DNA of 64,000 nucleotides from Candidatus Rokuibacteriota bacterium (GCA_044869815.1 JBIOXS010000023.1:5672-69671), one strand, 5' to 3'. Positions 59,251 to 63,773 are shown, counted from the first letter of the stretch. Notes: a model not told the origin generated them from the letters alone. A program made the numbers and translations.

Positions 59251-59279
59251 TTGACTTGTATACATCTCGCATATAAATT
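59251..59279 (+). promoter_or_regulatory. sigma70 promoter with GntR/FadR-type operator
   Basis: TTGACT-17 nt-TAAATT, with palindrome TGTATACA (59257-59264) in the spacer. Confidence 0.75.
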
Positions 59280-59307
59280 CCGTCCACCCGATCCGCGGAG
59301 AGCGCCG

Positions 59308-59958
59308 GTGCCGAACGACTCACGACCGAAGACCTATCTCGCCGATGCGGTGTACGTCGCGCTGCGCCGCGCCCTTGTGCACGGTGACTTCGATCCCGGC
59401 GAGCCGCTCACGGAGGGGGACCTCTGCCGGCGCTTCGCCGTGAGTCGCACGCCCGTGCGCGAGGCGCTGGCCAAGCTCGAGCGCGATCAGCTCGTCCGCG
59501 TGGTGCCGAAGAAGGGCGCCTTCGTGCGCACGCTGTCGCACGCCGAGATCCGCGAGCTCTATCAGCTTCGCGAAGCGCTCGAAGGCCTCGCCCTGCGGCT
59601 GGCGGCGCCACGCGTGGAGCGCGCGGAGCTCGACGATTTCGCGCGGCGCTTCCGTGAGCTGCGCGGGCGGCGGCGTCTGGCCGACAGCGAGGTGCGCGCC
59701 CTCGGCGAGGAGTTCCACCGGTTCCTCGTCAAGCGGGGGGGCAACACGCGCCTCGTGCAGATGCTGGAGGACATCCGGGAGCAGCTGCAGCCGGTGTGGA
59801 CGATGGCCATCGTCGCGCCACGCCGCGTGCACGGGCTCGTCCGCGAGCATCTCGGCATCATCGCGGCCCTCGAGCGCGGCGACGCCCGCCGCGCCGAGCG
59901 GCTGATGATCGACCACGTCCGCCGGGTCCGCGACGCCATCTTCCGCATGGTGGATTGA
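59308..59958 (+). CDS. GntR family regulator (FCD domain)
   Basis: VSRTPVREAL HTH, EFH, EHL.II.AL. Confidence 0.95.
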   Translation: MPNDSRPKTYLADAVYVALRRALVHGDFDPGEPLTEGDLCRRFAVSRTPVREALAKLERDQLVRVVPKKGAFVRTLSHAEIRELYQLREALEGLALRLAAPRVERAELDDFARRFRELRGRRRLADSEVRALGEEFHRFLVKRGGNTRLVQMLEDIREQLQPVWTMAIVAPRRVHGLVREHLGIIAALERGDARRAERLMIDHVRRVRDAIFRMVD

Positions 59959-59972
59959 ACAAGGAGGCGGTC

Positions 59973-60656
59973 ATGACTGAGATGAGCCCGTTCCGAACGA
60001 CGCTGGAGGCAGCGGTCAACGCCCGGCACAGCCGGCTCAACCCGTTCACCGAGCGCTGGGTGAAGGGTGAGCTCTCGCGCGCGCAGCTCGGCGCGTGGGC
60101 CGCGCAGCACTACCAGTACGTCTCGCAGTTCCCGCGCTGGTGCGCGACGGTCTACGGGGAGTGCCCCGATCCGGACGCGCGCGACTTCCTCCTCGAGAAC
60201 ATCGTCGAGGAAGAGGCAGGCGTCAAGCACGTCGACCTGCTGATCCGGTTCGCGGAGGCGTGCGGCGTCACGCGGGCGGAGGTGGAGACGAAGCCGCAGC
60301 TGCCGACCACGCGCGGGCTCACGGCGTGGTGCTTCGAGATGTCGCACAAGCCGTTTCACGTCGCGGCGGCCGGACTGCTCGTGGGTCTGGAATCCCAGGT
60401 GCCGGGCATCTACAAGCGCAATCTGCCGCCGCTCAAGACGCACTACGGCTTCACCGACCACGAGGTCGAGTTCTTCGCCATTCACATCGAGGCCGACGAG
60501 GTCCACGGCGAGCGCGGCTACCAGATCGTCGAGCGGCACTCCACCACGCCCGAGAAGCAGGCGGAGGCGGTGGAGGCGGTGCGCCAGGCCACCGAGATGC
60601 GCTGGCAGTACATGAGCGGGCTCCATCGCGCCTACGTGCTGAAGGAGGAGCTGTGA
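59973..60656 (+). CDS. Heme-oxygenase-like diiron enzyme (CADD/PqqC/TenA family)
   Basis: ENIVEEE...KH, LESQVP and FFAIHIEADEVH metal-ligand motifs. AAGGAGG SD. Confidence 0.88.
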   Translation: MTEMSPFRTTLEAAVNARHSRLNPFTERWVKGELSRAQLGAWAAQHYQYVSQFPRWCATVYGECPDPDARDFLLENIVEEEAGVKHVDLLIRFAEACGVTRAEVETKPQLPTTRGLTAWCFEMSHKPFHVAAAGLLVGLESQVPGIYKRNLPPLKTHYGFTDHEVEFFAIHIEADEVHGERGYQIVERHSTTPEKQAEAVEAVRQATEMRWQYMSGLHRAYVLKEEL

Positions 60657-61401: not shown

Positions 61402-61405
61402 CGCG

Positions 61406-62266
61406 ATGCGCGCCCTTCTCCTCGCCCTGATGGTGCTGCTCGGATGGGCGGCCTCGCTCCCCGCGCAGACGAGGTCCCTGCACCTGGTGCTGACACCGTC
61501 GCAAAAGCCGACCGATCTCCTCGCCGCCGGCCAGGAGTTCGGTGAGGTTCTCGGCCGCCTCATCGGCACCCCGGTCAAGGTCACGGTCGCCTCCGACTAC
61601 GCGGCCGTCGTCGAGGCCCTGCGGAACCGGACCGCCGATCTGGCGTTCGCCCATCCCGGAGGCTACGTGCTCGCCAGCCGGGAAGCGAAGGCGACGATCG
61701 TGGCCAAGAACCTCTGGCACGGCAAGAGCACCTTCACCTCGCGGATCTTCGTGCGCAAGGACGGCGGCGTACGGCAGCTCGAAGATCTCCGCGGAAAGAC
61801 GATCGCGTTCGTCGACCCGACGAGCTCCTCCGGTTACATCTATCCGATGGCCTTGCTGATCCAGCGCGGGCTCGTCAAGAACCGGGATCCGAAGTCGTTC
61901 TTTCGCGAGGTGGTGTTCGCGGGCGCGCACGACGCCGCGATGCGCGCGCTCGTCAACGGCCACGTCGACGCCATCGCCTCGTTCGACCTCGCCCGCGAGC
62001 AATACCTGAAAGACGCGGCCGAGCGTGAGCGGATCGTCTTCGTCGCCGAGACGCCGCCGATTCCGGAGGCGGGCATCGCCGCCCGTGACGGGCTCGACCC
62101 GCAGATGCTCGCGCGCGTGCGCGCGGCGCTCATCTCCATCCGCGGTCCGGCGTATGCGGACCTGCTGAAGCGCCTGTACGACATCGACGGTTTCGAGCCG
62201 GCGGAGGACCGCGAGTACGATCCTGTGCGCGCGGCGTTCGAGCTGGTCGGCGCCCGACCGCGCTGA
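61406..62266 (+). CDS. phnD: Phosphonate/phosphite ABC transporter substrate-binding protein
   Basis: SDYAAVVEAL, AFVDPTSSSGYIYP, FAGAHDA. Confidence 0.9.
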   Translation: MRALLLALMVLLGWAASLPAQTRSLHLVLTPSQKPTDLLAAGQEFGEVLGRLIGTPVKVTVASDYAAVVEALRNRTADLAFAHPGGYVLASREAKATIVAKNLWHGKSTFTSRIFVRKDGGVRQLEDLRGKTIAFVDPTSSSGYIYPMALLIQRGLVKNRDPKSFFREVVFAGAHDAAMRALVNGHVDAIASFDLAREQYLKDAAERERIVFVAETPPIPEAGIAARDGLDPQMLARVRAALISIRGPAYADLLKRLYDIDGFEPAEDREYDPVRAAFELVGARPR

Positions 62267-62292
62267 CCGCGCGTGCCGCCGTCCGCTCGGCG

Positions 62293-63036
62293 ATGATCGA
62301 CGTCAGCGGCCTGCGCGTGGTGCTGCCGCCGGCGACGGTGGCCGTGGACGGCGTCGACCTCGGCATCCGTCCCGGCGAGTTCGTCGTGATCCTCGGACCG
62401 AGCGGCGCCGGCAAGACGACGTTCCTGCGCGCGCTCAACCGGTTGGTCGAGCCGACGCAGGGCACCGTGCGCATCAACGGCCGCGCGGTGACCGGCGCCC
62501 CGCCCGCCGAGCTGCGGGCGGTACGCCGCCAGGTCGGCATGATCTTCCAGCAGTTCAACCTCGTGCGCCGGCTGTCCGTGCTCGACAACGTGCTCACCGG
62601 ACGCCTCGGCTACGTGGCGTCCTTGCCCAGTGTGGCCGGCCGCTTCCCGGAGCGCGACCGTGCGCTCGCGCGTGAGTGCCTCGAGCAGGTCGGGCTCGCC
62701 CACCTGGCCGAGCGCCGCGCCGACACGCTCTCCGGCGGCGAGCAGCAGCGCGTGGCCATCGCGCGCGCGCTCGCCCAGTCACCGACCGTCATCCTGGCCG
62801 ACGAGCCGACGGCGAGCCTCGATCCCGCGCTGACCGAGAGCATCATGGACGCGCTCCGTCGCATCAACGTCGAGCGCGGCCTCACGCTGGTGGTGAGCCA
62901 GCACCAGCTCGCGACCGCGCTCGCCTACGGCACGCGCATCGTGGGTCTTCGCGCGGGCCGGGTGGTCTTCGACGGCCGGCCGGCCGAGCTCACGCCGGCG
63001 GCCGTCGAGCGGATCTACGGCGGGGTGGCCCCGTGA
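62293..63036 (+). CDS. phnC: Phosphonate ABC transporter ATPase
   Basis: GPSGAGKTT, MIFQQFNLV.RL..NVL.GRL, LSGGEQQRV, ADEPTASLDP. Confidence 0.93.
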   Translation: MIDVSGLRVVLPPATVAVDGVDLGIRPGEFVVILGPSGAGKTTFLRALNRLVEPTQGTVRINGRAVTGAPPAELRAVRRQVGMIFQQFNLVRRLSVLDNVLTGRLGYVASLPSVAGRFPERDRALARECLEQVGLAHLAERRADTLSGGEQQRVAIARALAQSPTVILADEPTASLDPALTESIMDALRRINVERGLTLVVSQHQLATALAYGTRIVGLRAGRVVFDGRPAELTPAAVERIYGGVAP

Positions 63037-63773
63037 GACGGGCGACCGTCTTCGTCGCGCTCGCGGCCCTCGCGTGGACGGCGTGGGACACGGGCGCCGA
63101 TCCCGCACGCCTGGTCCGCGGGCTGCCGTGGCTGCTCGATTTCGTTCGGCGCATGGTGCCGCCCGATCTCCGCGTGCTCCGGCCGGCGCTCGACGGCGCC
63201 GTCACGACGGTCGAGATCGCGTTGCTCGGCACCGCGGTGTCGGCCGTCCTCGCGCTGCCGCTCGGGTTCCTGTCGGCCCGCAACGTCGCGGCGCCGCCGA
63301 TCTTCCACGCAGCGCGGGCGGCGCTGAACTTCTTCCGCAGCGTCGACACGCTCGTGTACGCGCTCGTGTTCGTGGCCGCCGTCGGCCTCGGCCCGTTCCC
63401 GGGCGTGCTGGCCGTCATCGCCTACACGACCACCTCGCTCGCGAAGCTCTACTCCGAGGCCATCGAAGGCATCGAGCGCGGCCCGGTGGACGCGGTCACC
63501 GCCACCGGCGCCACGCGCGTCCAGGTCCTGCGCTTCGGCGTCCTGCCCCAGGTGCTGCCGCTGTTCCTGTCCTATGTGCTGTACCGGCTCGAGACCAACA
63601 TCCGCGCGGCCACGGTGCTGGGGTTCGTGGGAGCCGGCGGGATCGGCTTCTACCTGCAGACCTATCTCCGCCTGATCGACTATCCGGCGGCCTCGACGGT
63701 CCTGCTGGTGACGGTTGCCATGGTCATGGCCGTCGATTTCGTGTCATCCAGGCTGCGCAAGCGCCTCGTCTGA
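63033..63773 (+). CDS. phnE: Phosphonate ABC transporter permease
   Basis: AKLYSEAIE, YRLETNIRAATVLGFVGAGGIG. Confidence 0.93.
   Translation: MRRATVFVALAALAWTAWDTGADPARLVRGLPWLLDFVRRMVPPDLRVLRPALDGAVTTVEIALLGTAVSAVLALPLGFLSARNVAAPPIFHAARAALNFFRSVDTLVYALVFVAAVGLGPFPGVLAVIAYTTTSLAKLYSEAIEGIERGPVDAVTATGATRVQVLRFGVLPQVLPLFLSYVLYRLETNIRAATVLGFVGAGGIGFYLQTYLRLIDYPAASTVLLVTVAMVMAVDFVSSRLRKRLV

Follow-up and report, generated by a model that had tools for sequence, protein, structure and literature searches.

The functional unit of an operon at positions 59308-63773 (+ strand) of a 64,000-nucleotide stretch of Candidatus Rokuibacteriota DNA (GCA_044869815.1; hereafter the window) is, with moderate probability, a small ferredoxin-dependent oxygenase module and not a seven-gene pathway. 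In this module, a multi-turnover heme-oxygenase-like dimetal oxygenase (HDO) related to CADD would oxidize a small acid to an aldehyde, together with a Rieske ferredoxin and a GlcG/DUF336 protein. An earlier sequence-only reading of the window had joined these genes, a preceding gntR gene and the following phnDCE importer genes into one new catabolic pathway for phosphonates, reduced phosphorus or other oxyanions. The window lies on contig C23 of a genome (G000) of 3.69 Mb and 70% G+C in 190 contigs, which is 80% complete, and the nearest matches of its proteins are in Candidatus Rokubacteria / Methylomirabilota bins.

The HDO gene (59973-60656, + strand) encodes 227 amino acids that match PF14518 well (116.1 bits, gathering threshold 28.9), and by Pfam and NCBIfam names the product is a heme-oxygenase-like "iron-containing redox enzyme". 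It scored below the cut-offs of the models for CADD (TIGR04305, 142.4 bits versus 200) and PqqC (TIGR02111, 74.9 bits versus 240). The top fold match of its AlphaFold model (predicted local distance difference test score 94.5) was CtCADD, with template modelling scores of 0.85/0.90, followed in order by PqqC, TenA, UndA, HrmI and BesC. In the alignment to CtCADD (1rcw) all six metal ligands (E80, H86, E140, H171, D175 and H178) were identical, as first read from the sequence, and they were invariant across 28 relatives. CADD cuts out its own Tyr27 and Lys152 to form 4-aminobenzoate, and this chemistry needs a tyrosine relay that includes Y141 and Y170, as described in PMC13108848. In the HDO the two sacrificial positions hold Thr26 (HTFY27 to NPFT) and Asn150 (IAREK152 to IYKRN), so that both replacements proposed earlier were borne out, and the relay tyrosines are replaced as well (Y141 by Leu139 and Y170 by Phe167). 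Among the protein relatives sought in 1.84 billion representatives, none of the full-length sequences at 37-48% identity had an equivalent of Tyr27 or Lys152, and all kept the six ligands; a tyrosine at the Tyr27 position was present in a CADD-type relative only 31% identical to the HDO. With both sacrificial residues replaced, the claim that the protein is unable to sacrifice itself in the manner of CADD is supported, and the loss of these residues and of the relay alongside invariant ligands indicates a multi-turnover enzyme that acts on a free substrate.

Rokubacteria also carry a second, paralogous HDO family (loci L078-L089, of which L088 belongs to the unpublished genome G058), with proteins of 230 amino acids that are 35-39% identical and have Trp at the Tyr27 position. 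These paralogues adjoin a gene with a CinA-like molybdopterin-binding domain in 9 of 12 loci, and they were set aside as unrelated to the module.

The gene for the Rieske-type [2Fe-2S] ferredoxin (60653-60985, + strand, 110 amino acids; PF00355, 66.5 bits, 2e-18) starts within the end of the HDO gene, overlapping its stop codon. Its cluster ligands C45, H47, C64 and H67, arranged as Cys-X-His and Cys-X-X-His, were invariant in 20 sequences. The next gene encodes a GlcG/DUF336 (HbpS-like) protein of 140 amino acids (60979-61401, + strand; PF03928, 114 bits). Its closest solved structure is EfgA (6bws/6c0z, E 3.8e-15), and K56, S115 and D123 align to the EfgA ligand residues K57, S114 and D121. 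Two GlcG subtypes that are mutually 33-35% identical occupy the same slot in the trio, which speaks for a DUF336 protein of some kind being required. When the complex of HDO, Rieske ferredoxin and GlcG was predicted and scored for its GlcG partner, the score was 0.00 in a run without controls, which bears neither way.

In order to determine which of the seven genes form a conserved unit, we surveyed 201 genomes of the same phylum; these tallies take in the unpublished genomes G029, G047, G058, G101 and G152. The HDO was found in 118 of the 201 genomes; orthologs are 78-97% identical, and below them comes a sharp drop to 39% or less. Neighborhoods were drawn from 46 Rokubacteria loci with up to 9 kb of flank per side (shorter at contig ends), where genes were called by a GC3-based script and tblastn, by which short genes may escape; counts use the 44 loci in which the HDO was called, leaving out G039, where it was not. 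The Rieske gene was directly downstream of the HDO gene in 39 of 44 loci and glcG was present in 43, and the trio was kept across about 45 genus-level lineages. The proposal of a dedicated Rieske ferredoxin and an accessory GlcG beside the HDO is thus supported by synteny. The flanks of the module vary widely among Rokubacteria genera and include genes for GGDEF, CoA-transferase III, amidohydrolase_2, acyl-CoA ligase, nitronate and luciferase-like monooxygenases, Opp-type and branched-chain ATP-binding cassette (ABC) systems, DinB and EamA proteins. In the genus of G000, for example, the readable loci without adjacent phnDCE (G031, G085, G094 and G111) are followed by genes for DinB and EamA proteins and, wherever the contig is long enough, preceded by a branched-chain-type ABC system. 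Naming a substrate from these neighbors was given up, as the flanks are too varied. The conserved unit is HDO-Rieske-GlcG only, at times with GntR.

Three loci (L132, L145 and L168) binned as Nitrosocosmicus, an archaeon, Dormibacterota and Deferrimicrobiaceae hold a Rokubacteria-type trio at 82-84% identity and 70% G+C. These are probably mis-binned contigs rather than cases of gene transfer.

Relatives outside the phylum were located by a scan of one genome per species with a four-row alignment as query, which returned 80 loci: 37 Rokubacteria-type, 2 Chloroflexota, 20 Acidimicrobiia, and 21 Bacillota and Actinomycetota. The Chloroflexota loci (65% identity) encode the HDO, a Rieske protein (in one of the two) and GlcG, followed by an NMT1-type binding protein. 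In Acidimicrobiia the HDO is 42% identical and lies between two aldehyde dehydrogenase genes, one upstream in 19 of 19 loci (one with a small intervening open reading frame) and one downstream in 18 of 19, the 19th being at a contig end. The HDOs of Bacillota and Actinomycetota are 47-51% identical to the one in the window. Seventeen loci of the Bacillaceae type had a called HDO; in them, the genes for a membrane protein, a small unknown protein, a 2Fe-2S ferredoxin, a creatininase-family hydrolase and an unknown permease precede the HDO gene in that order, and it is followed directly by an aldehyde dehydrogenase gene (17 of 17) and then by glcG (16 of 17). Further 3' genes, in varying order, encode a chromate-transporter-family pair, a GntR/FCD regulator (14 of 17), a second ferredoxin and often a RidA-like protein; plant-type 2Fe-2S ferredoxin genes are present in all 17 loci, and an aspartate-dehydrogenase-like protein is among the cluster products. 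The Bacillus aldehyde dehydrogenase is most like 2,5-dioxovalerate dehydrogenase (605 bits, below cut-off). No nameable pathway fitted this gene set. In Pseudonocardia parietis the same permease gene as in the Bacillaceae type is followed by genes for the HDO, a Rieske protein, a ferredoxin-NAD reductase (HcaD-like, 323 bits, below the cut-off of 450) and a second Rieske protein. This syntenic permease is DcuC/GntP-like by language-model features only, which makes it a lead.

Taken with the conserved trio, these loci suggest how the module may work. The two-metal site of the HDO, with three histidines and three carboxylates, would activate O2 and oxidize a free substrate over many turnovers, and the Rieske ferredoxin would re-reduce the metals after every turnover, since a [2Fe-2S] ferredoxin, of either the Rieske or the plant type, accompanies the HDO in three phyla and in one case together with a reductase. 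The substrate is most likely a small carboxylic acid that is oxidized to an aldehyde. FCD-type regulators and acid-type carriers suggest the small carboxylate, and the aldehyde dehydrogenase genes beside the HDO in two phyla suggest the aldehyde product. GlcG, with a formaldehyde sensor as its best solved relative, would be a helper that handles or senses the aldehyde, or that serves as an effector of the oxygenase. Where a GntR protein of the FCD type is present, it would repress its own promoter through TGTATACA until substrate or product binds. In the sub-lineage of G000, the four-gene module ended up directly upstream of an older, free-standing PtxB-like PhnDCE cassette, and from this position all seven genes would now be co-transcribed.

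Several observations weigh against this assignment. Substrate, product and activity are established for no member of this branch of the HDOs. The Acidimicrobiia loci showed no ferredoxin gene, the Rieske gene was not found beside the HDO gene in 5 of the 44 Rokubacteria loci, and the operon in the window is without a ferredoxin reductase gene. Aldehyde dehydrogenase genes are not adjacent to the HDO gene in Rokubacteria loci. The ligand residues of EfgA are largely kept throughout DUF336 proteins according to PMC8153426 and, being so widespread, cannot single out aldehyde binding in GlcG. In addition, the 4-nucleotide gap between glcG and phnD and the single predicted promoter would have PhnDCE co-expressed with the module here, and selection may have favored this arrangement.

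The operon itself is laid out largely as first described, with seven co-oriented genes separated by gaps of at most 26 nucleotides or overlapping (in gene order, a 14-nucleotide gap, overlaps of 4 and 7 nucleotides, gaps of 4 and 26 nucleotides, and a 4-nucleotide overlap). The claim of a single promoter also held, as a sigma-70-like TTGACT-17-TAAATT (59251-59279, + strand) was the only promoter-like site in 58900-64000, where shuffled sequence gave 0.1, and no terminator-like sites were found between it and 63773. Position 59251, at which the range given in the earlier reading begins, is the TTG of the -35 box and not a start codon, and the likelier start of gntR is the GTG at 59308. The gene (59308-59958, + strand) encodes a regulator of 216 amino acids of the FadR/FCD type (PF00392, 1.2e-18; PF07729, 6.7e-25). 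The palindrome TGTATACA (59257-59264), which overlaps the promoter spacer and is a candidate GntR operator, was confirmed as a single copy in the 64-kb window against 0.00 expected. A gntR gene is directly upstream of the module in at least 11 distinct loci, and a TTGAC box immediately followed by TGTATACA precedes gntR in 11 of 11 distinct gntR-bearing loci; of 70 distinct regions upstream of the HDO gene itself, only one had the palindrome. Because it tracks gntR and not the HDO gene, TGTATACA would be the operator of GntR itself, and the gntR promoter is probably autoregulated.

GntR was also considered as a phosphonate-utilization regulator. Its best NCBIfam match, phnR_burk, gave 107 bits, where membership in that family requires 271. 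The weak match is no evidence for phosphonate, and the Bacillus regulator scores similarly weakly.

The three genes downstream of glcG encode a PhnD-family periplasmic binding protein with a signal peptide (61406-62266, + strand; PF12974, 206 bits), the ABC ATPase PhnC (62293-63036, + strand; TIGR02315, 306 bits versus a cut-off of 266) and the permease PhnE (63033-63773, + strand; TIGR01097, 284 bits versus 217). PhnD passes the cut-off of TIGR01098, the phosphate/phosphite/phosphonate subfamily (181 versus 112), is below that of the PhnD equivalog (158 versus 261), and is PtxB-like, with PtxB as its nearest solved structure (5lv1, E 2.5e-28). That the HDO oxidizes an oxyanion imported by PhnDCE, be it a phosphonate, a reduced-phosphorus compound or some other one, which would be a new oxidative catabolic route, is the reading with which we began, and we now regard it as unlikely. 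It gains from the packing of seven genes behind one promoter with spacings of 4 to 26 nucleotides or overlaps, from the resemblance of PhnD to PtxB, and from the Bacillota clusters, whose chromate-ion-transporter-family pair belongs to another oxyanion carrier family. The arrangement was kept in five genomes and in contigs of four soil sequencing runs from two studies, and one of the runs may be the source sample; as these contigs bridge the junction between glcG and phnD, the junction is real DNA.

The distribution of the two gene sets argues against a common pathway. The complete neighborhood of HDO, Rieske, GlcG and PhnDCE genes was expected to be conserved across genomes, and it was not: PhnD follows GlcG in 5 of the 44 loci (G000, G192, G062, G130 and G157), all in one sub-clade of one genus, and the scan of public genomes found PhnDCE linked in 2 of 37 Rokubacteria-type loci, on the same contigs as G192 and G130. 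PhnD orthologs (67-90% identity) were found in 59 of the 201 genomes, outside the sub-clade on contigs other than that of the HDO gene, and PhnD-PhnC-PhnE was a free-standing three-gene cassette with varied neighbors in 18 of 18 other loci. Many genomes have the HDO or PhnD singly. In hand-made co-occurrence tables, 47 genomes had both, 44 had only the HDO and 12 had only PhnD when PhnD was counted at 67% identity or more, and the numbers were 67, 24 and 31 at 52% or more. Identity among HDO orthologs stays near 90% with or without linkage to PhnDCE. The sequence-only reading had named two findings that would speak against it, phnDCE being unlinked to the HDO cluster in relatives or being separately transcribed; the first is what the relatives have, and separate transcription is not indicated in this sub-clade.

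In G031, a genome of the same genus, the upstream genes and the divergent response regulator gene are those of G000, and then come a 252-nucleotide spacer and phnDCE, with the four-gene module absent. The ten HDOs of the genus split into two clades in the maximum-likelihood tree, the five linked to PhnDCE with 99/99 support, and a tree constraining all ten together was rejected by the approximately unbiased test (p-AU 0.022); the ten make up a taxonomic genus, although the test was chosen after the tree had been seen. Since the G031 flank holds PhnDCE without the module and the HDOs of the genus fall in two clades, the module has moved, or was replaced, to sit ahead of an older PhnDCE in this sub-lineage. 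The adjacency is recent and need not imply a common substrate. The claim that PhnDCE imports the substrate of the HDO in a phosphonate or reduced-phosphorus pathway is left unsupported by the linkage in 5 of 44 loci and by PhnDCE standing without the module in G031.

For a phosphonate importer there is also a conventional role in the source genome, as predicted from PhnA (phosphonoacetate hydrolase, 571 bits versus a cut-off of 408) and PhnW (aminoethylphosphonate transaminase, 371 versus 361), whose genes lie elsewhere in the genome. In the whole 80%-complete genome, PhnJ of the carbon-phosphorus lyase was not found and PhnX (phosphonatase) had no match above cut-off, which is a point in favor of a new oxidative route. 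The remark that the window is without genes for enzymes that act on the carbon-phosphorus bond therefore extends to the whole genome for PhnJ and PhnX, and not for phnA and phnW, which exist on contig C164. There, at 14711-17854 (locus L189), phnA, phnW and a gene for a DUF6/EamA membrane protein are side by side. A DAO-family FAD oxidoreductase of 466 amino acids is encoded just past the end of the window (L001, 8625-10022, - strand), and the same flavoprotein gene recurs beside or close to PhnDCE in about 8 of the 18 loci from other genera (L171-L185); one possibility is that it encodes an amine oxidase for an aminophosphonate.

A narrower version, in which the HDO was recruited to the PtxB-like importer in this sub-lineage alone, acts on an organophosphonate-like or reduced-phosphorus oxyanion, and is the first three-component HDO, made up of a catalytic subunit, a Rieske ferredoxin and a DUF336 effector or aldehyde sensor, seems improbable to us. 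If true, the recruited HDO would be a new oxidative route for organophosphonate-like or reduced-phosphorus compounds. In our view the phosphonate angle should be abandoned or regarded as a long shot.

The HDO might instead be a 4-aminobenzoate synthase like CADD and NePabS that fills a missing PabB step in folate synthesis. CADD is its closest characterized relative in both sequence and fold, and G000 encodes FolP and one chorismate-binding enzyme, with none reaching the PabB cut-off; a single chorismate-binding match was likewise found in 92 of 112 matched genomes of family f1. This role is nevertheless very improbable given that equivalents of Tyr27, Lys152 and the relay residues Tyr141 and Tyr170 are all missing, that the score against the CADD family model falls well short (142 bits against 200), and that the gene is patchily distributed and under a GntR repressor. 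Furthermore, many high-quality Rokubacteria genomes have neither the HDO nor a second chorismate-binding enzyme, and the Bacillaceae homologues at 50% identity lie in catabolic-looking operons. Across the phylum, chorismate-binding-enzyme matches number one in most Rokubacteriales genomes and two in most Methylomirabilis-type families.

It is extremely unlikely that the trio handles heme or oxidative stress as a ferredoxin-fed heme-oxygenase fold with an HbpS-like heme binder, a role that fits the Pfam names (heme-oxygenase-like fold and "haem degrading protein HbpS-like") and the Fur-family and peroxiredoxin genes 3 kb upstream, since the six invariant dimetal ligands indicate a metal site rather than a pocket for heme, the GlcG protein is without a signal peptide and nearer EfgA than HbpS (60 versus 34 bits), and the upstream stress genes are non-conserved neighbors.

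The upstream genes have features of their own. The Fur-family regulator gene (55854-56399, + strand; PF01475, 2.7e-25) is directly upstream of one for an AhpC/TSA peroxiredoxin (56384-57010, + strand), and the two gene products suggest a PerR-like pair. Within the peroxiredoxin gene, a TGA (56555-56557) stands in frame at the very position of the peroxidatic cysteine. Read as selenocysteine, this codon gives one peroxiredoxin of 210 amino acids (PF00578, 119 bits); a hairpin (-20.1 kcal/mol, z -2.27) lies directly 3' of the TGA, and the genome encodes SelB (279 bits, over the cut-off). The predicted product of 56384-57010 is thus likely a selenocysteine peroxiredoxin. Nearer to the operon, only the C-terminal part of a luciferase-like monooxygenase is in frame at 57738-58226 (+ strand; profile positions 177-306 of 314). 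Congeners have a full gene of 336 amino acids at this place, and the fragment may be due to a frameshift, to gene breakage or to faulty assembly.

Returning to the oxygenase module as the favored unit, the HDO family stands out as CADD-like yet not self-sacrificial, with a dedicated ferredoxin and a DUF336 partner that are kept in four phyla or more, and with catabolic-looking surroundings. Among open-access papers and preprints searched by title and abstract, none dealt with a trio of HDO, Rieske and GlcG or with a CADD-like enzyme of catabolism. What is new here is probably a ferredoxin-fed, DUF336-partnered and presumably catabolic branch of the CADD-like HDOs. Culturable Bacillaceae and Pseudonocardia carry the family, among them Cytobacillus firmus, Niallia oryzisoli, Rossellomorea aquimaris and Pseudonocardia parietis, which makes it directly testable. 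Establishing the reaction would add new HDO chemistry and could give DUF336/GlcG proteins a defined partner.

Among known systems, toluene 4-monooxygenase and its kind combine a diiron oxygenase with a ferritin-like catalytic fold, a Rieske ferredoxin, a small accessory protein and a reductase. The trio resembles this arrangement by analogy in its oxygenase, its Rieske ferredoxin and its small accessory protein, and a reductase is encoded beside the HDO in Pseudonocardia. The catalytic folds are unrelated, however, and GlcG is unrelated to the known effectors, which makes the comparison a working analogy and not a claim of membership. Set beside the PtxABC and PhnCDE importers, PhnC and PhnE of this operon reach the equivalog cut-offs, and PhnD is nearest PtxB and under the PhnD equivalog cut-off. 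CtCADD (CT610) and NePabS share with the HDO the seven-helix fold, about 27% identity and the same set of three histidines and three carboxylates, but the HDO has Thr and Asn at the sacrificed Tyr27 and Lys152 and Leu at the relay Tyr141. The HDO gene also adjoins genes for a Rieske protein, a DUF336 protein and a repressor, none of which belongs to the CADD system in the account given by PMC13108848. According to this 2026 review, about a dozen HDOs have been characterized, nearly all of those with an assigned reaction work in natural-product synthesis, and those studied need no protein effector. As described there, MboA, an HDO of natural-product alkyne formation, depends on a separate redox partner, MboB; compared by description only, this pair is like the proposed HDO and Rieske ferredoxin in that an HDO is served by a separate redox protein. 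Finally, EfgA, the DUF336 formaldehyde sensor of Methylorubrum extorquens, is the closest solved relative of GlcG, which has equivalents of its ligand residues. The gene efgA is reported in PMC8153426 to be without conserved gene context, whereas GlcG in these genomes is locked to the HDO.

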